A model generated the notes under the pieces. That model was not told the DNA's origin, did not search any database, and saw only the letters and a program-made list of their open reading frames with translations. A DNA stretch of 64,000 nt from Thermoproteus sp. (GTDB lineage Archaea; Thermoproteota; Thermoprotei; Thermoproteales; Thermoproteaceae): positions 1 through 64,000 of the forward strand of contig JBMFIG010000001.1 in NCBI GenBank assembly GCA_049976425.1, written 5' to 3'. Shown here piece after piece: positions 3,584 through 38,044 of this stretch. The position numbers were made by a program, and so were the translations under genes. The number at the start of each line of letters is the position of its first letter. Position 1 is the stretch's first letter.

Positions 3584-3821
3584 CTGAGAACATAATTGAG
3601 CTGGCACGTGCCTCCGCGGCGCACCGCGTCGTTTATGCTTTGGAAGTATATAAGGAGGGGCAGAGGCCGTATTTCAACGAACTAACAACGTGGCGTTATG
3701 GCTACGTATAGAGGCGGGCAGACCTGGCACGTTCAGGCCATAGAATTGACCGCTCAGAAAACCGGCCAAATCCCTTTTCCGACATAAAATGGGTGATTTA
3801 CCGAGCCTCAAACCCGATACC

Positions 3822-5546
3822 CTAAAGGAGGCGGCCCGGCGCGGCGGTCCTCTTCCAGCCGGTCAGAGATACGCCGGTTATCTTGGTCCACATCTTGGGG
3901 TCTATCCTGAAGGACTGCTCTATCCTCTCCCTGTGGAAGTTGTTGTACGTGCAGAACGGTATGACCCTTCCATCGGGGGTGGCGTAGTGTATGTCGCAAC
4001 GCTGTATCCTCTCCACGTCGAAGTTCATCACGTCCATGAAGTGCATTATGCCCAGGCCCACTATGTTGAAGAAGAACTGGCCCAACGAGTCGTAGTCTTT
4101 CTTCACCAGGAAGTCCTGTATAAGTCCTCTTATCTTCCTGTGCTTGACTGTCCTCAAGAGCTTCATGGCCTTCGTCGCCGCCACGGCTTTCCAGACCGTC
4201 TTCCCCCTCTTGGCGGTTCTGTAGACGTCCCAGGCTATCCTCTCGAAGGCGTCGACGTCGACGAGCTTCGTGATCGGGTATATCCTCTTCTCGTCCTCAT
4301 CGTAGTATATGAACGTCGCGGCGCCGCACACGGGGTTCATGGAGAAGAGCGGCTTGGGCGAGTTGGTGAGCGCCTCCACCATCTTGGCCACGGCCACGGG
4401 CCAGTTGGTGGGCCTCCAGTCCCATCTGCTTATCAAGCCGCCGGTCTGCCTCTCTATCTCTATGATGGTGTCGGGTATGGTTATCCTGAACTTCCTCAGC
4501 TCCTCCTTGCTGTAGAGCCTCGCGCGGCCGGCGAACGACACCGGCTGTATGTTGATCCACCTGATGACGTCTCTGTTCTGTATGGCGAAGTCCAGTATCT
4601 TGCCTAGGTCCTTGTCGTTGTAGCCCTTGGCCAAGGTGACCACGGGGACTATGGATCTGTGGCCCAGCTTGCGGGCCACCTCGATCAGCCTGCGCCTGAC
4701 GGCCGCGTAGGCCTTGGGGTTGTACATGCGGTGCCTCACGACCCCTTCGTTGCCCTCGTCTATAGTGTCGAACTGGAGGTACAACGTGGAGAGGCCGGCG
4801 TCAAGCAAAGCCTTGTAGAACTCCGGCTCGTTGGCGAGCCTTATGCCGTTGGTGTTCACCTCTATGTGGGTGAAGCCGAGCTTCTTGGCCATTCTGACTA
4901 TCTCGGGCAGGTCGTCCCTCAAGGTGGGCTCGCCTCCGGAGAGCTGTAGGGCGTTGGGCGGCCAGGGCCTCTGCGCCCTCAGAGTCCTCAACATGTACTC
5001 TATCTGCTCCAGGGTGGGCTCGTAGACGTAGCCCGCGGCGCCGGCGTTGGCGAAGCACACGGGGCAGGCCATGTTGCATCTGTTCGTCACGTCTATTATG
5101 GCCAGCACGGTGTCCGATTTGTGGACCGGGCAGAGGCCGCAGCCCATCGGACAGGACCCCATCTCTGTGTAGAACTGGAGGTCTGTGTAGGGGTTGGCGA
5201 GCCCCTTGGCTATATACTCGGGCGTGTCCCACTGGAGGAAGTAGTAGTACATCTCCGCGTCGCCCCAATAGAGGTCCTCGAAGACGCCGTGCTCCGGGCA
5301 GACCTTCTTCAGCCATATGGCGCCGTTCTCCTCGTATACGGCCATGGGTATCCTCCTGTTGCAGACGGGGCACACCGACAGGGAGGTCTTCACGACCCTC
5401 ACGTGCTCCGGCAGGGCAAACTGCCTCTTGACGGCGTTCTGCCAGGCCTCGTTCAGCAGAGTGGACTTATACCTGCTGGGGAGGTTAAACTTGCTTAGGT
5501 CCACCAGCCTGGTGGGCCTCGCGAGCTCCAGCACTTGCTTGCTCAT
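3822..5546 (-). CDS. tes: Tetraether lipid synthase (Tes/GDGT-MAS-type radical SAM enzyme)
   Basis: N-terminal CPVC...CPEH metal site, CPMGCGLCPVH cluster, radical SAM motif CNMACPVC, C-terminal RCDIHY...PFCTYN; 574 aa. Confidence 0.85.
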   Translation of the reverse strand: MSKQVLELARPTRLVDLSKFNLPSRYKSTLLNEAWQNAVKRQFALPEHVRVVKTSLSVCPVCNRRIPMAVYEENGAIWLKKVCPEHGVFEDLYWGDAEMYYYFLQWDTPEYIAKGLANPYTDLQFYTEMGSCPMGCGLCPVHKSDTVLAIIDVTNRCNMACPVCFANAGAAGYVYEPTLEQIEYMLRTLRAQRPWPPNALQLSGGEPTLRDDLPEIVRMAKKLGFTHIEVNTNGIRLANEPEFYKALLDAGLSTLYLQFDTIDEGNEGVVRHRMYNPKAYAAVRRRLIEVARKLGHRSIVPVVTLAKGYNDKDLGKILDFAIQNRDVIRWINIQPVSFAGRARLYSKEELRKFRITIPDTIIEIERQTGGLISRWDWRPTNWPVAVAKMVEALTNSPKPLFSMNPVCGAATFIYYDEDEKRIYPITKLVDVDAFERIAWDVYRTAKRGKTVWKAVAATKAMKLLRTVKHRKIRGLIQDFLVKKDYDSLGQFFFNIVGLGIMHFMDVMNFDVERIQRCDIHYATPDGRVIPFCTYNNFHRERIEQSFRIDPKMWTKITGVSLTGWKRTAAPGRLL

Positions 5547-5567
5547 TGCGCCTGCCGGGTCTCCTGT

Positions 5568-5582
5568 TTAAAAATTTTTTAA
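5568..5582. promoter_or_regulatory. Palindromic bidirectional TATA region between tes and the TrmB gene
   Basis: TTAAAAA-T-TTTTTAA centred in a 54-bp divergent intergenic spacer. Confidence 0.55.
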
Positions 5583-5600
5583 TAGAATTCCGTTAATACC

Positions 5601-6317
5601 GTGAATAAGGCCGTCCTCAAAGCTCTGGGGCTGGACGAGCGGGATCTGGCAATCTACGCGCTCTTGGTCGAGAAAGGCCCGCTCACAGCCAGGGAAATTG
5701 CCGAGAACGTCGGCGTGCCCTACACCAAGATATACCAGCACCTCGACGCGCTTGAGGGGCGGGGCTTCGTGGAGCGCATAGAGGGGCGCCCCGCCAGATA
5801 CGCCGCCAGGCCGCCTGCCGAGGTCTACAGAGGCTTGGTCTCCTACGCCTCGGCCGCCCTCAAGGCCTTAAAGGAGCACATGGACCTCCTGCAGACTCTC
5901 TACGAGAGCAGACACGGGAAGGCCTCGACCACCTTCATAGCCTTGATAAGAGGCGATAAGGTTATGGAGCTACTCGAGGAGGTCATAAGGTCCGGCGAGT
6001 CGGCTGTGTACGTGGCGTTGCCCTATCCGGAGCTCGCCGCGCCGAGGGTCATAGCCGCTATCGAGGAGGAGTCCAAGAGGATCGAGGTCAAGCTCCTCTT
6101 GACCAAGAGGCTCGCCAAGTACGTCTATCTGCCTCCCCGGGTCGACGTGAGGGCCCTGGAGGATATGTTCGGCGGAGGCGCTCTGGGGAACTCGGCCCTT
6201 CTGGCGGTGAGGCACGGCGAAGGCCTCCTCGGAATACACAGCAACGAGCGCTACCTCCTCGACATAGCCAAGACGTATTTCAACTATCTGTGGGACAGGG
6301 CCGAGCCGGTCGGGTAG
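5601..6317 (+). CDS. TrmB-family transcriptional regulator
   Basis: N-terminal wHTH (GPLTAREIAENVGVPYTKIYQHLDALEGRGFV, GRPARY) plus PLD-like effector domain. Confidence 0.9.
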   Translation: MNKAVLKALGLDERDLAIYALLVEKGPLTAREIAENVGVPYTKIYQHLDALEGRGFVERIEGRPARYAARPPAEVYRGLVSYASAALKALKEHMDLLQTLYESRHGKASTTFIALIRGDKVMELLEEVIRSGESAVYVALPYPELAAPRVIAAIEEESKRIEVKLLLTKRLAKYVYLPPRVDVRALEDMFGGGALGNSALLAVRHGEGLLGIHSNERYLLDIAKTYFNYLWDRAEPVG

Positions 6318-28008: not shown

Positions 28009-28876
28009 GATCGCCGTAGTCACGCATAGACACGCGGATCTTGACGCCTTAGGCTGTGCCCTGGTGCTCCGCGACGTCCTGGAGGGCCTAGGCCGTGAGG
28101 CAGTTGTTGTGTGTCCCGACGGCGTGGCCAAGGACGCCGATCCCTACGCTAGGTGTTCCGAGGAGGTGCCGCCTGACATAGAGATGGCCGTGTTGGCGGA
28201 TGTCGCATCGCTGGCGCAGGTCCCTCCCATGGACGTGCCGTTGGCGATATTCGACCACCACGCAGTCGGCGACGAGTTGCCCGGCGTGAGGGAGGAGAGG
28301 CCCAGCTGTAGCGAGATGGCGTTGGAGCTTGCCATCGAGGCGGGCGTGAGGCCCAAGCGCGATTCATTGATAGCGGCGGCTCTGGGGATCTACGCAGATA
28401 CGGCCAGATTGTTAAGAGCAGACAAGAGGACCTTAGCCGCGATCTCCTTCGCGATATCGGAGATAGGGCCGCTCGAGAAGTATATAGTACAACAAGGGGA
28501 GGAACGATCCCTCAAGATGGCCAAGCTCAAGGCGCTGGCGCGCCTCGCGATCTACGAAACCAGGCTGGGCGTGATTTGCGCCACCCACGTAGACGCCTAC
28601 GAGTCGGACGTGGCCGCTCTGTTGACCTCGGCCGGATGCGACGTGGCGATCGTTGCATCGCGTCACGGCGGCGAGGTGAGGCTCGTGTATAGATCGCATA
28701 AGGTGGACGTCGGCGAGATGGCGGCGAGGATAGGCGAGCTTCTAGGAGGGAGCGGAGGAGGCCATAGAGGCGCCTCTGTGACCACAGTGAAGATGAGGGC
28801 GACCAAGGCCGATCTGCCGAGGCTGTTAGGGGACGTGGTCCGCGCCCTGGATCCCGACGCGAGGCCGCTTAGCTGA
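27953..28876 (+). CDS. DHH/DHHA1 phosphoesterase
   Basis: HRHADLDA, DHH, GIYADT and GGGH motifs. Confidence 0.9.
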   Translation: MTEGMYLERLLNVLGNRRRIAVVTHRHADLDALGCALVLRDVLEGLGREAVVVCPDGVAKDADPYARCSEEVPPDIEMAVLADVASLAQVPPMDVPLAIFDHHAVGDELPGVREERPSCSEMALELAIEAGVRPKRDSLIAAALGIYADTARLLRADKRTLAAISFAISEIGPLEKYIVQQGEERSLKMAKLKALARLAIYETRLGVICATHVDAYESDVAALLTSAGCDVAIVASRHGGEVRLVYRSHKVDVGEMAARIGELLGGSGGGHRGASVTTVKMRATKADLPRLLGDVVRALDPDARPLS

Positions 28877-29414
28877 GCATCTCCACCCTCCGTATCCTCA
28901 GTCCGCACGAGGGACACCCCATCACGATGTGGCTGATCAGAGATCTATATTTCGCCGAGAAGATCTTCTCCGACACATATATCCTCATCCGCGCGCTGGC
29001 GCAGTTGGGGCATATATCGCCGTCGCCCAGGCCCTGGCCGATTTTAAACGGCCTGAAAGCCATGGCGTGGCCCACGGCCTCCTCTAGACCCTCCTCGATA
29101 TCCGCGGCGTTGACGCCGATTAGCTTAACGCCGAGATCCCTACCGTACCACCTATTGATCCTGTCGGCAACGCTCTGGAGCTCGTCGATCACGAGATAAG
29201 GCCTATACGCGACAACCACCAGCACATCTGAATTGAACAACTTCAGATAGTCGGCAAGCTCTAGGGGGTCTACATCGAATATATGGCTCCTCTCTGGGCA
29301 CCAGAACGAAACGTAGAGGTTGCCGAGCGCCGCGTACAAGAAGTCGGATTTATGTTCGACCACCTTGAACCCTCTGCCTGCTATATACTCCTCCACCTTC
29401 TGGCAATCCTTCAC
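28869..29414 (-). CDS. Hypothetical protein with C-terminal zinc ribbon
   Basis: CPNC...CPSC. Confidence 0.7.
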   Translation of the reverse strand: MKDCQKVEEYIAGRGFKVVEHKSDFLYAALGNLYVSFWCPERSHIFDVDPLELADYLKLFNSDVLVVVAYRPYLVIDELQSVADRINRWYGRDLGVKLIGVNAADIEEGLEEAVGHAMAFRPFKIGQGLGDGDICPNCASARMRIYVSEKIFSAKYRSLISHIVMGCPSCGLRIRRVEMLS

Positions 29415-29444: not shown

Positions 29445-29609
29445 GTGCGTTGCCCTATGTATAGATCCACAGCCGACGGGATCCGATGTATACTAATACC
29501 CCCTGAGGAGTGGCGGATAAGCAAGGCGCAACTAGAGAAGTACTGCAACAATGGAGGATCCGGGTGCTCTATATACGCTAGGTATATGTCGGTCAAGGGC
29601 AAATTCTAG
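29445..29609 (+). CDS. Small four-Cys protein (54 aa)
   Basis: GTG start ~24 nt after TTAATTA; VRCPMY...IRC...YC...GC; divergent from the previous gene. Confidence 0.6.
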   Translation: MRCPMYRSTADGIRCILIPPEEWRISKAQLEKYCNNGGSGCSIYARYMSVKGKF

Positions 29610-31444
29610 CGTCTTAATCTGAGGTAAACCATGGAGATAGCCACTAGTATCCCTGCGAGCGCCGCCAGCGATGTGGGAAGCTCTCTTCCTGAATTAGTAG
29701 CTACGCTGGGGGTAGTCAAGTTGAAGGTGAAAGAGGCAGGATTAACGGCAATAGGAAGCGTTAAGACGAACTCGTACCTTATAATGCCAGTGCCATATAT
29801 CTTTTTATAGGTTTTAGCTACCGAACTAAAATACTCATATCTCTCTATCGTTTTTGTGATATTGTATCTATAGTTTGATATTATAGAGTTAACTAGACCA
29901 AGGTAGGGAAGCTCGCCTTCCAACGCCGTAGAGAGGGACTTAATCTGACCTGCGCTGTATTTTAAAGATCTCGAGGCGGAGATTAGATAGGCAACGCCGT
30001 CGTTAATAGGCGCAACTAGCCGGTTTACCTGGCCCGCCACGACGGTCAGGTTGTTCGCTATATCCACTAGAGATCTGGAGGCGTTTATTATTATCGGCGG
30101 CATCTCCCTCAACATGGCAGTGGCGTTCCGCCTCGTGGCCAACGCTGTTTGATTTAACAAACCCTCCACTTGGCCCAGCTGGCCGCCGATAGCCACCAAA
30201 GCGTTTCTGGTAGTGGAGACTATGCCGATTAAGGCGCCCACAGAGGTCTTGGCGGAGTCCACCGTAGATTGCAAGCTCTGGATCAAATCGATTGCGTAGT
30301 CCAGCTCTTGGTTCAACGCCTTTGTTGCGTTTTCTACCAATGTATTATTTGAATTTATTTGATTAACTTTTTGTTTTATGGAAATAAGATTTAAATAAAT
30401 TCTATTAATAGAATTTTCGGCACTTTGTAAGGAGAAGTAAATTGTGTATAGATTTCCCTCTATAGAATTGAGAGCCTGCACGGAGGTCGAGAGGGAATTT
30501 TCATAGGCCCCTATCGCTATTGCCTGGGTTTCCAGTGCGTTGGAAAGGGTGGTAAGATAGGCGTATTCGTACTGTATAAGGAGCAGTGATCTATTCAGGG
30601 TAGACGCAACGCCGAGAAGAGACGCCGATATGGCGGCTAGTTGGGAGTTGAGCGCCTTCACCACGTACTGCGACGCGTTCAAGCCTTTGGCCCCTTCCTC
30701 GAACGCCGCCGAGCTCAAGTTCAGCACACTGACTAGGTTATTCAAATTATTTGTAGTGTTATATATTAAGTTATTAAATATATTAACAGCATATGTTAAA
30801 TTATTTAAATAATTATATGTATTATTTAAAACAATTATAGAGCTGTTGGCTTGTTCTATATAGCCAGAGAGATCTATGTCCGATATTATCTCAACTGAAG
30901 GGAGATTCGCGGCGCCGAAGTCGCCGAAGTTCACGACTCTGTAAGATATAGAGAACTTCTTTTCATAGCTGACGAAGAAAGTCCATTGATATACCGTCGT
31001 GCCCCCCAGATTTTCAACTCCAGAGGGAGCCACGTCGCTCATTATCTCAACGCCGGGCGGCCTCTGTACTAGCACCGTCACAGGTATGCTGAAGGGCATA
31101 TAATTCTTTATTATAAAGTTTATTTTAATTAATGAATTATTTGAGCAATATAATTCATTATTTGTAAGTGACGCATTAATATATGTTATATTATAGAAAA
31201 TAGCTATAGGAGGAGGATAGGATCCGTTGGCTGGGATGTATATGACGGAGGCGCCGAAGGGGGGCACCACGTGGCCTAGATACTCCATAGGCCTCGAGGA
31301 GTTGTTGACCACGAAGTACATGTACTGATACGTCGTGGATACGACGCCGCTGTACGAGGCGCTTGTGGATATTATCAACGTGGGCTCCATAGCCCATACG
31401 ACCGATGTTGACAGCAACAGTAGCAAGGCGATTTTTATCTCCAT
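29606..31444 (-). CDS. Secreted, C-terminally anchored long coiled-coil glycoprotein
   Basis: Signal peptide, beta-rich N-domain, ~330-aa heptad region, many N-x-S/T sequons, terminal TM plus RLRR. Confidence 0.8.
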   Translation of the reverse strand: MEIKIALLLLLSTSVVWAMEPTLIISTSASYSGVVSTTYQYMYFVVNNSSRPMEYLGHVVPPFGASVIYIPANGSYPPPIAIFYNITYINASLTNNELYCSNNSLIKINFIIKNYMPFSIPVTVLVQRPPGVEIMSDVAPSGVENLGGTTVYQWTFFVSYEKKFSISYRVVNFGDFGAANLPSVEIISDIDLSGYIEQANSSIIVLNNTYNYLNNLTYAVNIFNNLIYNTTNNLNNLVSVLNLSSAAFEEGAKGLNASQYVVKALNSQLAAISASLLGVASTLNRSLLLIQYEYAYLTTLSNALETQAIAIGAYENSLSTSVQALNSIEGNLYTIYFSLQSAENSINRIYLNLISIKQKVNQINSNNTLVENATKALNQELDYAIDLIQSLQSTVDSAKTSVGALIGIVSTTRNALVAIGGQLGQVEGLLNQTALATRRNATAMLREMPPIIINASRSLVDIANNLTVVAGQVNRLVAPINDGVAYLISASRSLKYSAGQIKSLSTALEGELPYLGLVNSIISNYRYNITKTIERYEYFSSVAKTYKKIYGTGIIRYEFVLTLPIAVNPASFTFNLTTPSVATNSGRELPTSLAALAGILVAISMVYLRLRR

Positions 31445-32199
31445 GCAGAGTCTATAGCTCTGATCTTTTCATATATCTCTTTTGCCTTATCTACATCTAT
31501 TCTTATCTCGCCTCTCGGGATTTCGCCATCCACCACATACCCGCCTCTGACGGTGTAGACCTTATCCGCTATCGCCGCGACGTCGGGGTCGTGTGTCGCT
31601 ATGAGGACAGTGGTCCTCCACGCCTTGTTTAGGGCTAATATCAAGCTGAGTATGGCGGAGGCGTTTTCCAGATCCACGTTAGACGTAGGCTCGTCCAGTA
31701 TCAGAAGCTCGGGGCTGTTGGCCAATGCGCGCGCCAGCGCGGCGCGTTGTTGCATGCCGCCCGACAGCTGGATGGGATACCTCTCTGCCGAGTCCTCAAG
31801 GCCGACGAGCCTCAATAGCAACTTGGCCTTGGCCTTAGCCAAGTCCTTGGGCATACCTGCGGCCAACATCGGCAACATCACGTTCTGCAACGCCGTTAGG
31901 TACGGGACTAGGTTATACGACTGGAATAGATAGCCTATTCTCAAGAGCCTGAACCGCTCCAGCCTCCTCTCGTCGAGGCCCGTCACGTCGGTTCCCAGCA
32001 CCACGACGACGCCGCTGGTGGGCCTATCCAAGGACGATATTATGTTCAACAAGGTCGTCTTGCCGGAGCCTGAGGGGCCCATAAACGCCGTGATAGTGGC
32101 GCTGGGTATCTTGAGCGTTACTCCCTTCAACGCGTGCACCTCGCCGGCGGCTGTCCTGTATATCTTGTGTACATTCTCCAGATATACCGCCTCGCTCAT
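31435..32199 (-). CDS. ABC ATPase, MacB/LolD type
   Basis: GPSGSGKTT, GYLFQSYNL, LSGGMQQR, DEPT, ATHD. Confidence 0.93.
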   Translation of the reverse strand: MSEAVYLENVHKIYRTAAGEVHALKGVTLKIPSATITAFMGPSGSGKTTLLNIISSLDRPTSGVVVVLGTDVTGLDERRLERFRLLRIGYLFQSYNLVPYLTALQNVMLPMLAAGMPKDLAKAKAKLLLRLVGLEDSAERYPIQLSGGMQQRAALARALANSPELLILDEPTSNVDLENASAILSLILALNKAWRTTVLIATHDPDVAAIADKVYTVRGGYVVDGEIPRGEIRIDVDKAKEIYEKIRAIDSAWR

Positions 32200-33332
32200 C
32201 TCAAGATCTCCAGAGGTCTCAAGGTCACGGCCCTATATATCGGCAGGAGGGCGCCTGCCAGAGCTACTAGGAAGGACAAGGCGATGCCCAGCGCAAACAG
32301 CGACGGTATGAACGGTATAGGGACGTCGAAGAAGTAGCCCAGCTTAATTAGTAGGTACTTGATCCCCAGAGCCCCGAAATAGCCAGCGATGCCGCCAGCC
32401 GCGCCCCCCAGAAAGCCCACCGAGGCGATCTCGAGCACGAACGCCAGTGCTATATCCCTTCCCGAGATGCCGGTGGCCTTCAAGAGAGCTATCTCGCCCA
32501 TACGTTCCCTCACTGTTATGGACATAACTGTGAAGGTGGTCAGAAGGCCTGCCAGAAACGCGATGATCTCTATCACAAGGAAGAATATGTTCAGCATGTT
32601 GAATACTCTGTTTATGGTGGACAGAGCGCTCTGTTGTGTGTATACCTCGGCCTGCGGATACCTCTGCTTCAAAGCCTGGGCTAGGGGCTGTATCAACGAC
32701 TTGTCCTTTAGGGTTATGAAGACCATGTTGTAGAAATCCCCTATACCCATCTGTTGTTGGAGCCAATCTAGAGGCACGACGACCAAGTTAAGGCTCATAG
32801 GGCCTATGAATCCCTTCAACAAGTTGCTCATTATGCCGACCACGGTCGCTCTGAGCTTTACAGGAGGCGCCACGCTACTCTGGTATACGTATATCGTCAC
32901 GTCTTGCCCCAACGAGACGCCTAGCGTGGACTCGACCACCGCCTCGCCTCCCGCATGCGGCAGTCTGCCGGCTTGCAACTCCACGTCGAAATAGCCTATA
33001 TCGCTCAGGGGCACTCCCAGAAGCGTCACCGTCTTGTTCCCCAGAGTGCCCGTCAGCATGACCACAGGCTCGGCGCTCTGGACGTAGGGGATAGATCTTA
33101 AAGAAGAGATGAAAGCGTATGGGATATTAATTGAGTTGGAATAAATAAGTATATCTGCTGGAAATATTTGATATAATTGATTCTTTACATATATTTTAGC
33201 CCCAACGCTTATAATGCTCAGAGCTACCATCAACGCCGCGCCTATGGCTATGACAATAACCAGCAACAGGTATCTAGCCTTTCTAGCCCTCATATCGCTG
33301 GTTGCCAGCATCGTGATGTGGCGATACGCCAT
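32196..33332 (-). CDS. ABC permease, MacB/FtsX type
   Basis: TM1, large extracellular domain, three C-terminal TMs; VRERMGEIALLKATG and PLEILR motifs. Confidence 0.9.
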   Translation of the reverse strand: MAYRHITMLATSDMRARKARYLLLVIVIAIGAALMVALSIISVGAKIYVKNQLYQIFPADILIYSNSINIPYAFISSLRSIPYVQSAEPVVMLTGTLGNKTVTLLGVPLSDIGYFDVELQAGRLPHAGGEAVVESTLGVSLGQDVTIYVYQSSVAPPVKLRATVVGIMSNLLKGFIGPMSLNLVVVPLDWLQQQMGIGDFYNMVFITLKDKSLIQPLAQALKQRYPQAEVYTQQSALSTINRVFNMLNIFFLVIEIIAFLAGLLTTFTVMSITVRERMGEIALLKATGISGRDIALAFVLEIASVGFLGGAAGGIAGYFGALGIKYLLIKLGYFFDVPIPFIPSLFALGIALSFLVALAGALLPIYRAVTLRPLEILR

Positions 33333-33368
33333 CGCGGATATTTTTGAACTAAAAAATTATTTAGCGTT

Positions 33369-35957
33369 GTGAGAACGGCGTCGGCCTACGCCTTGCTCGC
33401 GCTGTGGGCCGCTGTGTATATCTATCTAGCGTTGCATGCGGCGAGGGTATTTGACGTGCTGGTGTACTCAGAATCCAAGCTAATGCCTAAAAATGTAGAA
33501 CCAAATATAGTAAATAATATAATAAATAATGGATCTAAATCTAATAGTTCTTCCAATTTTATATTTATAGTAGTATATGGACCTAATCTTTCGCATAAAC
33601 TTTCTCTAATCAACAAGACATTGGTTGAGGAGGGCTACAACGTGACGTCGCCGCTTACTATACAGTATACAGCCCAAAAAATATATTGGGCAAAAATAAA
33701 TACTATATTAAATAATTATACAAATAAATTCTTTAATTACTTAAATACTATATATAATTCTACAGAAGATAGCTGTATAAAGCTTAGAGAACTTAAGGAA
33801 GCATATGAGGCGGCCAAGAGAAACGCCACGGCGTTGTTGTACGCCACGTATGGCGCCGCCCTGCTGAACTACTCAACGCCTCAGACGGCGAAGTTCCTCC
33901 AGTACTACCGGAATCTGTCGAAAATTTACGGCGTGGATACGGCGGTGAGGCTCGCCGCCGACGAGGCCTACGGCAACGTGAGCTGGTTGCTCGAGGGCAT
34001 TACGTGGAGGGACTGGGCCGCCGAGAGCTCGATAGATCTAGTTGCCGAGAGGATCTTGTCGGCTAGATTGAACCAGTCGCTGATCCAGCTGGCTAGAAAC
34101 GTGACCGAGCTAGGGGTCGAGAAGTACCTGTACCTACAGCTGGCTTCCCGGTTGCCGCCTGCTCTGAGGCCCTATATACCGTATGTCCTCTGCGTTAATG
34201 AGACCGGAGCCGCTACCGACATTTTTAGGGAATCTCTACTTAGGAACTTGACCTCAGAATATCCGCCGCCTACGATGTACACCATACCGCAAGCCGAGCA
34301 GTTGCTTTACGGCGATCTGTACGCTCTGACGATAGTCGAGGGGACAGGCGTGCCTAGGCTTAACTACAGTTGGGCCGTCCCCGTATCTACCGACATCCTC
34401 ATGTCGCAGTTCACGGAGACCGTGACCTCCGAGGTGCCCGACATAGATAAGACAACGGCGATAGTCATGTTGGCGATTCTGCTCTTGGTGTTCGGCACGC
34501 TGATCGCGCCGCTGGTCGTGCTGGCCGAGGTGGGGCTGTCCTACCTCGCCCTCCTGGGGCTTATCTACTTGATCTCGCCCTATATGCCGCCCTACTACCT
34601 TTCGGTGTACATAGCAGCGCCCGTGGTCTTCGCGTTGGGGATAGACTACAACCTCTTGTTGCTCGGAAGATACGCAGAGGAGAGGAACAAGGGGGCCGAG
34701 CCCGTCGAGGCCGTTAGTGCGGCCGTCGGCTTCGGCAAACGCGCGGTTCTCACAAGCGCGGCGGTGGCCGGCCTGGCTCTCGGTAGCTTCGGCTTCTCTG
34801 TCTTGCCATTTATGCAGACCATAGGGCTGGCCTTGGCGCTTTCCGTCGTATTGGTGTTGGCCACCTCCTTCACGGCAACTCCCGCGTTGATGACCGTGAT
34901 GGGCGATAGGCTGTTCTGGCCGAGGAAGATAGAGGAGATAAGACTCCACGAAGGCCGCTCCAAGCTCCTGGGCAGATCTGTGGACTTTGCGCTTAAACAT
35001 TCGAAAATATTATTAATATTATTTGTTATAATTACTTTAACCTTAATTATATTCATAATAAATAATATAAGAATAACTACAAATCCTATATCGGCAATGC
35101 CGGAGACTAAGAGTAAGGAGGCGTTGCGTATAGCCCAGACGTATTTCAGAAACGTGACGGCGTTATCTACCACATATCTCGTATTTGCTAGGAGCCCGAA
35201 CGACTCTGTGCTTAGCTATATAACTGAAATTCCCTATTATACAAACTATACTATATTTACAAAGGGAAAATATTATATAATTTCATTAAAATTATCTCTA
35301 ACTAGTACATCGGATGAATTAATATATATTTATGATAATTTAACTAAACTTAGGAAACATGGTCTTCTATATATAGGCGGCGATGCTGGCTGGAAACACA
35401 TCTATTATACATATATATATTTATATTTTTGGCATTTTCAACTATATATAATTTTATTGAGCGTGATATTGGCTCTAATGGTGGCTCTTCGTAGCGTCAT
35501 GACTCCCTTAAGGCTTGTCGCCACCGTGCTTATGTCTATGGTGTGGGGCCTCGCCCTCAACATAGCCCTATTCCAGATGGTAGGCGGCCAGCTGACGTAT
35601 TGGCTACAGCCCGTCGTCCTTACAACTCTCCTGGTCGCCGTAGGGACAGACTACGACGTGTTCATAGTGTCGAGGATTAGGGAAGAGGTAGAGAGAGGTC
35701 TCGACGATAGGTCCGCGATAAGGACGGCTATAGTGACCACAGGCCCCATAGTCACGGGGGCCGCGTTAATCCTCGCCCTAGCCTTTCTCTCCATAGTCCA
35801 GTCGCAGTTGACGGTCCTACAGCAGATAGGGGCCACCGTGGCGTTTTCGGCTATTTTCGACGCCTATATAGTGAGGCCGTTGCTCGTCCCGGCGATAATG
35901 AACCTACTAGCTAAATACAACTGGTGGCCTTCTAAGTTGCATGAACGTCCGCGTTAG
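33369..35957 (+). CDS. MMPL/RND-family transporter
   Basis: Two repeats with ALGIDYNLLL and AVGTDYDVFIVSRIREE; C-terminal NWWP. Confidence 0.9.
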   Translation: MRTASAYALLALWAAVYIYLALHAARVFDVLVYSESKLMPKNVEPNIVNNIINNGSKSNSSSNFIFIVVYGPNLSHKLSLINKTLVEEGYNVTSPLTIQYTAQKIYWAKINTILNNYTNKFFNYLNTIYNSTEDSCIKLRELKEAYEAAKRNATALLYATYGAALLNYSTPQTAKFLQYYRNLSKIYGVDTAVRLAADEAYGNVSWLLEGITWRDWAAESSIDLVAERILSARLNQSLIQLARNVTELGVEKYLYLQLASRLPPALRPYIPYVLCVNETGAATDIFRESLLRNLTSEYPPPTMYTIPQAEQLLYGDLYALTIVEGTGVPRLNYSWAVPVSTDILMSQFTETVTSEVPDIDKTTAIVMLAILLLVFGTLIAPLVVLAEVGLSYLALLGLIYLISPYMPPYYLSVYIAAPVVFALGIDYNLLLLGRYAEERNKGAEPVEAVSAAVGFGKRAVLTSAAVAGLALGSFGFSVLPFMQTIGLALALSVVLVLATSFTATPALMTVMGDRLFWPRKIEEIRLHEGRSKLLGRSVDFALKHSKILLILFVIITLTLIIFIINNIRITTNPISAMPETKSKEALRIAQTYFRNVTALSTTYLVFARSPNDSVLSYITEIPYYTNYTIFTKGKYYIISLKLSLTSTSDELIYIYDNLTKLRKHGLLYIGGDAGWKHIYYTYIYLYFWHFQLYIILLSVILALMVALRSVMTPLRLVATVLMSMVWGLALNIALFQMVGGQLTYWLQPVVLTTLLVAVGTDYDVFIVSRIREEVERGLDDRSAIRTAIVTTGPIVTGAALILALAFLSIVQSQLTVLQQIGATVAFSAIFDAYIVRPLLVPAIMNLLAKYNWWPSKLHERPR

Positions 35958-36633
35958 GGCGCTCCTCCTCGACTTTTTCGGGACTCTGGCCAGGATCGAC
36001 GAAGAGGAGTCCTACCTACGCGACGTGGCCGCCGGGCTTTCGTCGGTCTTAGGCGTGAGCGATGAGAAGTCTCTGGAGTATTTCATGGAGGCTAGGAGGT
36101 TGGCCAACGCCGTGAGGGAGGCCTCTCTGGCTGAAATAACCGTTGACGGACAGGCGGCCTTAATATCGGCGCTGTCGGGAGGCGATTGGCGCGATATCCG
36201 CGCCGTCTTGGTCAACGCGATGCTGAACCACCTAGTGCCTGTGGACTATTCGCCGGAGTTTCTCAGATGGGCGAGTTCCCGGTACAAAACGGCAATAATA
36301 TCCAACATAACCTGCAAATGCTACATAGAGGAGTTCCTGAGACGGCTGGGCGTTTCCGTCGACGTTTTGGTGACGTCGGACGTGATCAGGTACCGGAAAC
36401 CGCATAGGGTCATGTTCAGGATAGCCCTCAGAAGGCTCGGCGTCAGGCCGGAGGAGGCCGTCATGGTGGGCGACGACGATGTGGATTTGGGCGCCAGGGC
36501 CTTGGGCATACTCACCGTGATAGTCGGGAGCAAGACGCGAGGCGATCTGAACTTCAGCAGTCTAGCGGAGCTTAGGCGCTGGCTGGAGGAGAATACATTT
36601 AATGCGTCGGAAACCCCTCGGCATGATCTGTAG
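35941..36633 (+). CDS. HAD-family hydrolase
   Basis: DFFGTL, ISN, RKPH, MVGDD. Confidence 0.88.
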   Translation: MNVRVRALLLDFFGTLARIDEEESYLRDVAAGLSSVLGVSDEKSLEYFMEARRLANAVREASLAEITVDGQAALISALSGGDWRDIRAVLVNAMLNHLVPVDYSPEFLRWASSRYKTAIISNITCKCYIEEFLRRLGVSVDVLVTSDVIRYRKPHRVMFRIALRRLGVRPEEAVMVGDDDVDLGARALGILTVIVGSKTRGDLNFSSLAELRRWLEENTFNASETPRHDL

Positions 36634-38044
36634 CTCGTGGATCTGCGGCGAGATAAAAAGGCCGAGCTCCTGCGTCGAGGAGGACTACGACGTGTTGGTT
36701 GTGGGCGCCGGCATAGGCGGATTGGCGGCCGCCCAAGAGCTGGGCAGATACGGGCTTAAGGTAGCCGTCTATAGCGAGGGGCCTAGAGGCGGCCACAACG
36801 CCCTAGACGGAGAGCCGACCATATCGGGCGTCTCGGCCCGCGAATATATAGATAAGTATACGGTGGAGGTCAATAGAGGGATTTTCGACGGCGAGGTCCT
36901 AATTTCCGGCGATCGGTGTATTAAGCCTAAGTTTAAGCATTTGGTTCTCAGCACGGGGGGCGTGGAGATGTACACGCCGATGCCCGGCTCTCCGCAAGTC
37001 CTATTGGCCTCGGAGGCGCTCGCCGCAGGGATAAACGGCAGGAGGCTACTGGTGTGGGGGACCACCGAGTGGGGGCTCCGGACGGCGATCGCCTTGGCTC
37101 GTAGAGGCAACAGGGTAGTGATCGCCGACAACTCGGCCTACCTACGCGACGTGAAGTACTTCCAGACGGTTAGAAGCACCTTGGAGAAGTTGGGGATAGA
37201 GGTGGTACACTCGGCTGTGATAAGGAGGTATAGAGACGGCGTGATCGAGCTGAAGGTGTACGTGGGGAAGAAGGGGACAGAGAATAGGAGGATAGAGGCA
37301 GACGCCGTTGTGTCGACGGTCAGAACAGCCAACATATACGTCCCGCTGAGGCTAGGCCTCAAGGTCTTCTACTCGTTCGAGCTCAACTCGTTGGTGCCCA
37401 GGCGCAACAGCTTCGGCGAGGTTTTGAGAATCGACGATAGGGGCAAGTCGGCCGGGGGCACTAACATATACGCCGTCGGCGAGCTGTACGGCGCCGTCTA
37501 CGCCCACCTCGAGGAGGCCCACGGCAGATTGCTCGCGTCGTATATAGCGTCCAAGGAGGGCCTGGAGGACGCCGACAAAGTCGCCAAGGCTCTGGAGGAG
37601 TTCAAGTCCAGGATAGCTCTGGAGGTCAACTGGCTCTACAACCTCGACTTGAGGCTCAGCAGAGGGACCGACTACAGCGACCTATACGTGGAGCCCAACG
37701 TGATAGATGCGCCCGGCTGGCCCTATTTTTGGCCAAACGATATCGACGAGATAGACGGCGACCAGGTAATATGTCCCTGCACGGGCCTAAAGCTCTCCGA
37801 CTTCATGAAGGCCGTCGACAGACTCAACAAGATGAAGATCGAGGTGAGGGTGACAAGCGACGAGGTGAACAAGCTCAGACACATCAAGCTACCCACAATA
37901 AGCCAGGTGGCCAAGGGCCCCAGCCCCTGTTTCGAGATATTCTGCATACCCAACATGGCCATAATAGCGGGGGCGATATACGCCCAGAAGCCCTCGTATC
38001 TACTATACGGACGGCCCAAGCAACTCTACGAGCCGGCGCCTTAG
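36623..38044 (+). CDS. FAD-dependent oxidoreductase (sarcosine oxidase/proline dehydrogenase alpha-like)
   Basis: VVGAGIGGL Rossmann motif, NIYAVGE, C-terminal ICPC...PC...C. Confidence 0.7.
   Translation: MICSSWICGEIKRPSSCVEEDYDVLVVGAGIGGLAAAQELGRYGLKVAVYSEGPRGGHNALDGEPTISGVSAREYIDKYTVEVNRGIFDGEVLISGDRCIKPKFKHLVLSTGGVEMYTPMPGSPQVLLASEALAAGINGRRLLVWGTTEWGLRTAIALARRGNRVVIADNSAYLRDVKYFQTVRSTLEKLGIEVVHSAVIRRYRDGVIELKVYVGKKGTENRRIEADAVVSTVRTANIYVPLRLGLKVFYSFELNSLVPRRNSFGEVLRIDDRGKSAGGTNIYAVGELYGAVYAHLEEAHGRLLASYIASKEGLEDADKVAKALEEFKSRIALEVNWLYNLDLRLSRGTDYSDLYVEPNVIDAPGWPYFWPNDIDEIDGDQVICPCTGLKLSDFMKAVDRLNKMKIEVRVTSDEVNKLRHIKLPTISQVAKGPSPCFEIFCIPNMAIIAGAIYAQKPSYLLYGRPKQLYEPAP

Follow-up and report, generated by a model that had tools for sequence, protein, structure and literature searches.

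What does a long coiled-coil protein, predicted to stand outside the membrane of an archaeon, do in an operon with an ATP-binding cassette (ABC) permease and an ATPase? The question is raised by a locus in a 64,000-nucleotide stretch of Thermoproteus sp. DNA (assembly GCA_049976425.1, contig JBMFIG010000001.1, positions 1 to 64,000; hereafter the window), in which a MacB/FtsX-type permease gene, an ABC ATPase gene and an open reading frame (ORF) for a 612-aa protein, labelled CC612 here, overlap on the minus strand. These three genes constitute one evolutionary unit. We tentatively read their products as a three-part type VII ABC mechanotransmission system, in which CC612 would be the outside partner and would act as a lever or adaptor instead of a pipe; we put this at a little under an even chance. 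The parts of the module are the following (TM, transmembrane segment; the source of each assignment is given in brackets).

32196..33332, minus strand: MacB/FtsX-type (type VII ABC) permease, 378 aa, with TM1, a periplasmic core domain and three C-terminal TMs (ORF, Pfam, profile)
31435..32199, minus strand: ABC ATPase, 254 aa (ORF, Pfam, NCBIfam, solved chains)
29606..31444, minus strand: CC612, 612 aa, candidate type-I membrane glycoprotein of an unannotated family (ORF)
31388..31444, minus strand: CC612 residues 1-19, signal-peptide-like hydrophobic N-terminus (hydropathy, model)
30872..31387, minus strand: CC612 residues 20-191, predicted double beta-sandwich "foot" (model, conservation)
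29795..30871, minus strand: CC612 residues 192-550, heptad-repeat helices in a predicted up-down-up-down bundle, with 14 N-glycosylation sequons (DSSP of the model)
29609..29794, minus strand: CC612 residues 551-612, comprising strands 554-567, linker 573-591 and C-terminal TM anchor 592-611 (model, hydropathy, conservation)

The permease and ATPase genes overlap by 4 bp and the ATPase and CC612 genes by 10 bp, in agreement with the single operon proposed in an initial annotation of this DNA. To determine how far this arrangement extends, gene neighbourhoods were compared across the phylum Thermoproteota; the counts are over relatives and are therefore not independent. Among the 20 neighbourhoods examined from the order Thermoproteales, permease, ATPase and CC612 genes were contiguous at all 15 loci from Thermoproteaceae. 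The same order was found at 17 of 19 loci from other families of the class, with the two misses cut by contig ends, and the trio was also present at 15 of 16 loci from other classes of the phylum, the exception being a solitary second copy; at one locus the CC gene was convergent. Overall the three genes were contiguous at 47 of 55 loci, which bears out the view of the ABC pair and the coiled-coil protein as a linked set. The sister family differs from this pattern: ATPase and CC612 genes were adjacent at 5/5 loci, but the permease gene at 0/5. In two sister-family genomes that were checked, a permease ortholog (30-32% identity over the full length) lies elsewhere with no adjoining ATPase gene, and another FtsX-type permease in the same two genomes has its own ATPase.

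Of 41 related genomes, 32 have a CC612 ortholog. A profile built on the beta domain matched 69 of 120 genomes of the class, and a wider profile matched 72 of 401 genomes drawn from the phylum; in this last search one genus had CC matches in 16 of its 17 genomes, and several large families had none (0/56, 0/32, 0/25 and 0/24). The family is small, with 27 representatives at E <= 0.001 among 1.84 billion proteins. Going by record labels, its distant carriers are Thermofilum/Infirmifilum and genomes labelled Candidatus Brockarchaeota or Thermoproteota, and the distant proteins keep a signal peptide, a sequon-rich ectodomain and a C-terminal TM.

The module varies in its details from lineage to lineage. 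Distant CC proteins (L050-L068) carry a charged tail of 30-45 aa after the TM helix, and their ATPases are ~292-309 aa long. Thermoproteaceae CC proteins stop at the TM helix, and the accompanying ATPase has 254 aa, or 280 aa in one genus; sister-family ATPases are 284-290 aa long, and the CC proteins there have little or no tail. Contact between the CC tail and the ATPase is conceivable. The gene immediately upstream of the permease gene, on the same strand, encodes in six distant lineages a ~500-516-aa protein with CARDB and/or Big_3_5 immunoglobulin (Ig)-like matches, some of them below cut-off (L060 3858-5390, L062 4966-6465, L097 4678-6210, L099 11062-12612, L100 10195-11724, L107 4719-6230). 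Such a gene is lacking upstream of the permease in Thermoproteaceae, and the ancestral module may have had four genes, the upstream one included. At seven loci the CC gene is followed on the same strand by an ORF of ~160 aa, of one family and without a Pfam match (L050 6552-7028, L051 9454-9933, L052 9671-10162, L053 6472-6951, L058 6630-7124, L105 6223-6717, L108 6650-7129), whose N-terminus we take to resemble a ribbon-helix-helix DNA-binding motif. The 181-aa ORF that follows CC612 in the window (28869-29414) is unrelated to it (13% identity) and was rejected as a member of the module, as it adjoins the CC612 gene at two Thermoproteus loci only. The same genome also encodes a second MacB-type system (L039, contig C32, 2846-6894, minus strand), with a 407-aa permease, a 704-aa secreted beta-rich protein and a 222-aa ATPase in a row; its sister-family counterparts carry CARDB-domain proteins of 543 and 875 aa (L033, L036). 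Comparison of the CC612 beta-domain profile with the CARDB-type partner proteins of such paralogous MacB systems gave a probability of <1%, and hence no relation.

To characterize the motor half of the module, we searched the permease and ATPase against domain models and solved structures. The permease matched Pfam MacB_PCD at residues 22-223 (6.2e-15, 56.5 bits, cut-off 27) and FtsX at residues 256-371 (1.2e-13, 51.6 bits, cut-off 25.5), and a profile built from 13 orthologs matched MacB best among solved chains, over the full length and with an E-value of 1.4e-21, followed by Spr0695, YtrF and LolC/E/F, with FtsX weaker. By these matches it is a type VII ABC permease, having an FtsX-type C-terminal TM bundle and a periplasmic core domain between TM1 and TM2. 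Its nearest relatives among named records are from Thermoproteus spp. (78-87% identity), then from Pyrobaculum and Vulcanisaeta. The ATPase scored above the curated cut-off for Pfam ABC_tran (8.5e-33, 114 bits). Its nearest NCBIfam models are LolD, the MacB nucleotide-binding domain (NBD) and FtsE, all below their equivalog cut-offs, and its nearest solved chains include the Spr0694-type 5xu1_A, the MacB NBD, YtrE, LolD and MJ0796. The translation contains GPSGSGKTT, LSGGMQQR, LLILDEPTS and ATHD, which we take to be the standard ABC motifs, all intact; with the matches above, this classes the protein as an NBD of the LolD/MacB/FtsE group. Type VII ABC systems are not known to carry substrates across the membrane; ATP-driven motion is passed to an extracytoplasmic domain and from there to a partner such as MacA, LolA or EnvC/PcsB/RipC. 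MacB-type permeases work as dimers.

The third gene product is a candidate type-I membrane glycoprotein. Hydropathy analysis of CC612 showed an N-terminal signal-like segment (residues 1-25), which is also present in relatives, and a C-terminal hydrophobic helix (588-611). In the four helices between them a period of 3.5 residues is dominant, with power of 68-120 versus 11-62 at 3.6, and this helical part consists of 44.6% small residues (A, S, G, T, N) and 12.3% charged ones. Its sequons number 21, where 2000 shuffles gave 10.2 +/- 2.8, and 14 of them lie in the helical part; among the individual sites, N242 and N256 recur in 21/21 aligned relatives and N90 does so in 20/21. The signal peptide, beta domain, small-residue heptads, abundant sequons and C-terminal anchor ascribed to this protein in the initial annotation were all seen by hydropathy, structure prediction, periodicity or shuffling. 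Neither CC612 nor any of 16 distant members (16/16) has a Pfam family above cut-off, and NCBIfam likewise gave none for CC612. HlyD/MFP families did not appear at E <= 0.01 in Pfam or NCBIfam (in Pfam with the 16 distant members included), and Pfam showed no LytM, CHAP or NlpC/P60 domain of the kind borne by FtsEX partners. A relation to Mce/MlaD-type lipid-transport proteins was considered and rejected: Mce4_CUP1 reached 18.4 bits against a cut-off of 32.6, no stretch passed alone, and an MCE domain is missing. The beta-domain profile had 0 matches at E <= 1 among PDB sequences, and the best feature score in the ESM Atlas was 0.88, below the 0.9 lead level, with clusters that are all bacterial and uncharacterised.

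A model of CC612 was made with AlphaFold2 (AF2) from an alignment of 21 sequences (mean predicted local distance difference test score, pLDDT, 77; predicted template modelling score, pTM, 0.50). It places a low-pLDDT helix at residues 2-17, beta strands at 22-191 (pLDDT ~85-94) and helices at 192-289, 295-361, 368-441 and 448-550 (98, 67, 74 and ~103 residues; pLDDT ~65-78), after which strands 554-567 (pLDDT >90) rejoin the beta domain and are followed by a low-confidence linker and a terminal helix. The helix lengths are consistent with an up-down-up-down course leading back to the beta domain, and the model shows a membrane-proximal double beta-sandwich, closed by the C-terminal strands, that carries a closed four-helix double hairpin of ~15 nm. 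This length is that of the longest helix (0.15 nm per residue); adding the beta foot and a linker of 19 residues, we estimate that the protein reaches 20-25 nm. Residues 258-476 superpose on a designed four-helix bundle of 139 residues with a root-mean-square deviation of 2.1 A, so that the far end would consist of two hairpin tips lying side by side. No channel is visible in the monomer. A single hairpin of ~165 residues per arm and ~25 nm, forming a hollow conduit, had been proposed initially; the model shows neither the hairpin, its longest helices having ~100 residues, nor the conduit. Fold searches were less informative. Foldseek found a weak likeness of the beta part to AP2 mu2-type domains (TMt 0.3-0.37) and returned chemoreceptor or MakA rows for the helices, and VIA-align returned designed bundles, ClyA, XaxA, Cry6Aa, FlgL/flagellin and McpS at Z 11-16. 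As such values are common among helical bundles, no kinship to toxins, flagellin or sensors was drawn from them.

Conservation is concentrated at the two ends of the predicted rod. The best-conserved part is the beta foot (scores 1.4-1.85), which has an invariant W154 (W135 in alignment numbering) and a G-x-[FW]-G motif. Values are also high in the returning strands (1.7) and in helix 1 over its distal half, together with the tip (1.6-1.75), the conserved distal turns being residues 241-315 and 421-465. Scores are near zero at the proximal turn (361-375), in the linker (573-591) and in the TM helix. As judged from the alignment, conservation is thus bipolar, peaking at foot and tip, which would place an interface at the foot, next to the core domain of the permease, and another functional site at the tip, with the TM helix as a mere anchor.

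The most natural reading of CC612 is that of the extracytoplasmic partner of a MacB-type ABC pair. From the gene linkage, domain identities, predicted fold and conservation pattern we infer a scheme that specifies the physical contact, the direction of force, the reach and the nature of the target. The cytoplasmic ATPase would drive movement of the permease's extracytoplasmic core domain, and this movement would act on CC612, which would stand beside the permease on its beta-sandwich foot and be held to the membrane by a non-specific C-terminal anchor. Its glycan-coated, closed four-helix rod (~15 nm) would carry the conserved tip ~20-25 nm into the space under the surface layer (S-layer), which in Pyrobaculum extends ~37 nm from the membrane according to a preprint (10.64898/2026.08.21.746120); the same source describes homologs of the 292-kDa S-layer protein in Thermoproteus and Vulcanisaeta, and the wide, S-layer-bounded quasi-periplasm assumed at the outset agrees with its account. 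The rod would then be a lever or adaptor and not a hollow pipe; what it hands on to a target at the tip would be work, or else a hydrophobic or envelope substrate bound to it. The 14 helix sequons, two of them invariant, fit an exposed rod surface. Precedent comes from the coiled-coil proteins EnvC, PcsB and RipC, described as serving FtsEX, for a MacB-type ABC acting through an outside partner, and from the adaptor Spr0693 of a bacterium that lacks an outer membrane, which is reported to dock on a MacB-like pump (PMC5768738).

Several points weigh against this scheme. Contact between CC612 and the ABC pair is itself inferred, and a complex prediction with a single copy of the permease (13-row alignment) and CC612 residues 20-612 (21-row alignment) gave, without control runs, ipSAE values of 0.06 and 0.09 (mark 0.32), which count neither way. 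In the sister family the permease gene lies elsewhere, so that the tightest linkage is between a cytoplasmic ATPase and an outside protein; operon history, as opposed to function, may explain this. The CC612 helices are predicted with only moderate confidence (pLDDT ~65-78, pTM 0.50), their helical-bundle matches (Z 11-16) fall in the uninformative range, and prediction of a monomer can fold onto themselves hairpins that really pack between subunits, in which case a tube would be possible. CC612 and its 16 distant members show no enzyme or known binding domain in Pfam that would name the target at the tip. Finally, a divergent MMPL-family gene beside the module has the same presence and absence as CC612 in 62/62 Thermoproteales genomes (see below), which leaves room for a functional tie that we rate as secondary.

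The main rival to the lever is an efflux adaptor like MacA or Spr0693, in which several CC612 copies would surround the permease dimer and form a helical tube. The ABC pump would expel amphiphilic or hydrophobic molecules (lipids, antimicrobial peptides or metabolites) from the outer leaflet into or across the sub-S-layer space, independently of TolC as in Gram-positive bacteria. The gene logic is the same as that of spr0693-0694-0695, whose adaptor is described as a hexameric nanotube docked on a MacB-like transporter (PMC5768738), the permease profile best matches MacB and Spr0695, and CC612 has the topology of an adaptor: a helical hairpin emerges from a beta domain near the membrane and leads the chain back to it, and there is a single-pass anchor. 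Coiled-coil hairpins can build such a structure, since MmpL5, with a 196-aa coiled-coil insertion in its second porter domain, has been modelled as a trimer with a ~13-nm tube (PMC12501195). However, CC612 has no sequence relation to HlyD/MFP families, its anchor is C-terminal and not N-terminal, and its sequons on the helices would put glycans on many faces. We prefer a lever or adaptor because the monomer model closes the four helices on themselves, the helix sequons are many, and conservation peaks at tip and foot without a conserved stripe along the rod. A tube is on balance unlikely, and is the alternative that we take most seriously.

The next question is whether the genes on the other side of the permease belong to the same machine. 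The features concerned are these.

33333..33368, no strand: divergent AT-rich spacer, 36 bp, from permease start to MMPL start (sequence)
33369..35957, plus strand: MMPL-family resistance-nodulation-division (RND) transporter, 862 aa, with a ~200-aa helical insertion (residues 95-297 = DNA 33651-34259) (Pfam, AF2)
35941..36633, plus strand: HAD-superfamily protein, 230 aa (Pfam)

As first described, the MMPL gene starts (33369, plus strand) 36 bp from the permease start and is divergent from it, and the HAD gene is coupled to it, overlapping its end by 17 bp on the same strand. The MMPL protein matched Pfam MMPL at 4e-69 (233.5 bits, above the curated cut-off), and its AF2 model (pLDDT 83.7) has the two TM bundles and two alpha/beta loops of that family. 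The first extracellular loop holds a small porter core with a ~200-aa helical insertion (residues 95-297), which begins with a 72-residue helix and has eight short helices besides; the model therefore agrees with the unusually large first extracellular helical domain noted earlier. Its best solved matches are MmpL5, MmpL3 and MmpL4 (TMt ~0.65, 20-22% identity), and the top 33 Foldseek rows are all of the MmpL3/4/5 type. The HAD protein matched Pfam Hydrolase above the curated cut-off (9.2e-15, 56 bits) and HAD_2 (43.8 bits), which place it in the superfamily, with no NCBIfam equivalog. Its N-terminal motif is LLLDFFGTL in Thermoproteus; Pyrobaculum orthologs (L017-L025) have SFWGLL at the same place, without the Asp that we take to be the usual nucleophile of the superfamily, and may not be active hydrolases. 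The HAD gene end is overlapped by 32 bp by a gene for a 480-aa FAD/NAD-dependent pyridine nucleotide-disulphide oxidoreductase (36602-38044), which is syntenic at four Thermoproteus loci (L013-L016) and was not found beside HAD at Pyrobaculum loci.

The initial annotation had joined the ABC pair, CC612, MMPL and HAD proteins into one trans-envelope machine, with CC612 as a lipid conduit bridging membrane and S-layer. Within the order the MMPL association is close: the gene is the divergent neighbour of the module at 14/15 Thermoproteaceae and 3/5 sister-family loci, and the spacer is short (33-82 bp, with similar AT-rich boxes) at 12 related loci with callable starts, across genera. The 36-bp spacer here has TATA-like runs on both strands, a composition that fits back-to-back promoters, and in Thermoproteales the MMPL gene and the module probably have a control region in common. 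MMPL orthologs and CC612 are present together in 50 Thermoproteales genomes and absent together from 12, a complete concordance that includes two genera in which the genes are not adjacent, and the MMPL protein is nearest to the lipid and siderophore exporters MmpL3/4/5. This concordance is the strongest point for a single machine, yet it is weak evidence, because the relatives are not independent, the absences are limited to some three genera and neighbouring genes are lost together in one deletion; such deletions in about two or three lineages would explain the joint absence. Outside the order the association disappears. MMPL was adjacent to the module at 0/19 loci from other families of the class and 0/16 from other classes, or 0/35 in all; in a class-level search outside Thermoproteales, an MMPL ortholog match at E <= 1e-10 occurred in 0/19 genomes that matched CC, and a CC match in 0/12 of those with a (distant) match to MMPL. 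HAD follows MMPL at 12/15 Thermoproteaceae loci and 0/5 sister-family loci, so that its linkage is confined to one family, in part of which the motif lacks its Asp. The helical extension of the MMPL protein is a known variant, and no separate conduit protein is therefore needed; CC612, for its part, is modelled as a ~15-nm rod without a channel. We thus regard the MMPL protein as a separate lipid-type RND exporter, a neighbour and not a core part of the module, and the single machine as improbable. The check suggested for it, co-occurrence of all four genes across archaea, was run within Thermoproteota: the trio is linked widely, MMPL is its neighbour only in Thermoproteales, and HAD follows only in Thermoproteaceae. 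What stands of the interpretation as a whole is the set formed by the ABC pair and CC612 (47/55 loci); the MMPL/HAD machine (0/35), the single hairpin and the channel do not.

The two units can also be seen apart in individual genomes. In a complete Pyrobaculum genome (G019) the CC gene lies near 484363 and the MMPL gene near 532354, ~48 kb apart, with unrelated genes beside the permease (L024), and adjacency is therefore breakable within Pyrobaculum; this also counts against a single machine. In draft genomes G004, G022 and G108-G111 the MMPL ortholog is in at least two pieces with in-frame stops, which could be due to assembly error or gene decay; in G004 (L016, MMPL region 3800-5884) the ABC-CC trio is intact.

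Alternatively, CC612 could have a structural role in the envelope like that of SlaB, serving the S-layer or quasi-periplasm as spacer, strut or secondary anchor, while the ABC pair would see to its insertion, positioning or turnover. Its signal peptide, beta-sandwiches, coiled coil and C-terminal TM, with the heavy glycosylation predicted for it, are reminiscent of SlaB as published; the distal tip is conserved, and at an estimated 20-25 nm the rod might reach the lower face of a canopy extending 37 nm. However, the Pyrobaculum preprint (10.64898/2026.08.21.746120) describes one 292-kDa protein that supplies lattice, Ig-domain pillar and TM anchor and alone explains the cryo-EM density. Since the S-layer has its own Ig-domain stalk, CC612 would not be its anchor, though it possibly approaches the underside of the canopy. 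In addition, the CC612 beta domain is at the membrane end in the model and not distal, and a purely structural protein leaves the obligate linkage to an ATPase across the phylum unexplained. We accordingly consider a structural role improbable. A sensor, with the helical bundle as a chemoreceptor-type ligand-binding module and the ABC pair in sensing or detoxification in the manner of BceAB, is very improbable: four-helix and helical-bimodular sensor domains are among the fold matches (McpS ligand-binding domain, Z 12.2), relatives have sub-threshold HBM and MCPsignal Pfam matches and distant members a charged cytoplasmic tail, but all these matches are uninformative or below cut-off, Thermoproteaceae CC proteins end at the TM helix without a cytoplasmic output, and no kinase or regulator is consistently linked, the small ORF after the gene occurring at only 7 of the loci examined.

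We return to the lever or adaptor driven by the ABC pair. Our search of the open-access literature found no archaeal MacB-type system with a coiled-coil partner, and the CC612 family is undescribed there and without a Pfam or NCBIfam model. In its most specific form, which we hold to be speculative and rather unlikely, the proposal is that CC612 is the archaeal counterpart of bacterial periplasmic adaptors: an ATP-actuated, glycan-coated rod that links a MacB-type motor to the S-layer underside or to quasi-periplasmic cargo and that was recruited in Thermoproteales to an MMPL lipid exporter. If this were so, Thermoproteota would have an energised link across an ATP-free compartment. How archaea with a wide sub-S-layer space perform energy-requiring work outside the membrane is largely unexplained, and the trio, present in Thermoproteales, Thermofilaceae, Brockarchaeota-labelled genomes and others, is a concrete and testable candidate. 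The picture of a four-gene machine is corrected accordingly: the ABC-CC612 trio is the primary unit, and the link to MMPL is a lineage-specific question.

Compared with known systems, the MMPL neighbour is like mycobacterial MmpL4 and MmpL5 in having an MMPL fold and a ~200-aa helical insertion in an extracytoplasmic porter domain. Unlike theirs, the insertion is in the first porter domain instead of the second, and it consists of the 72-residue helix and eight short ones, with no long antiparallel hairpin; as no MmpS-like neighbour was seen among the ORFs of the window, the protein was not placed in the MmpL4/MmpL5 subgroup. SlaB of Sulfolobales is described, in the discussion of preprint 10.64898/2026.08.21.746120, as having Ig-like domains and an extended coiled coil with a membrane anchor. 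Compared by description, CC612 is like SlaB in its domain list only (signal peptide, beta-sandwiches, coiled coil, C-terminal TM, glycoprotein). SlaB is the stalk of a separate lattice protein, with distal N-terminal beta domains and a parallel coiled coil, whereas the helices of CC612 are modelled as an insertion that returns to a membrane-end beta domain and CC612 is tied to an ABC ATPase; the Pyrobaculum/Thermoproteus S-layer, moreover, has an Ig-domain stalk of its own.

The module also resembles FtsEX with EnvC, PcsB, CwlO or RipC, where a type VII ABC system passes ATP-driven movement to an outside coiled-coil protein without transmembrane transport, and where the ABC genes and partner are operon-linked in some bacteria. 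It differs from these in that CC612 lacks the LytM, CHAP or NlpC/P60 domains of the partners and is membrane-anchored, these archaea are without peptidoglycan, and the permease is nearer to MacB/Lol than to FtsX. Closest in gene logic and partner topology are Spr0693-Spr0694-Spr0695 of Streptococcus pneumoniae and MacAB, which share with the module a MacB-type permease, an ABC ATPase and a single-pass extracytoplasmic partner with one or more membrane-near beta domains and a distal helical hairpin; like the Spr0693-0695 host, the Thermoproteus organism has no TolC-type outer channel. CC612 stands apart from their adaptors in lying outside MFP/HlyD by sequence, in its C-terminal anchor, in its double hairpin of four helices, in its predicted heavy N-glycosylation and in being archaeal. 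With strands 554-567 rejoining the beta domain in the model, it nevertheless has the hairpin topology of an adaptor, a likeness of design and not of homology.

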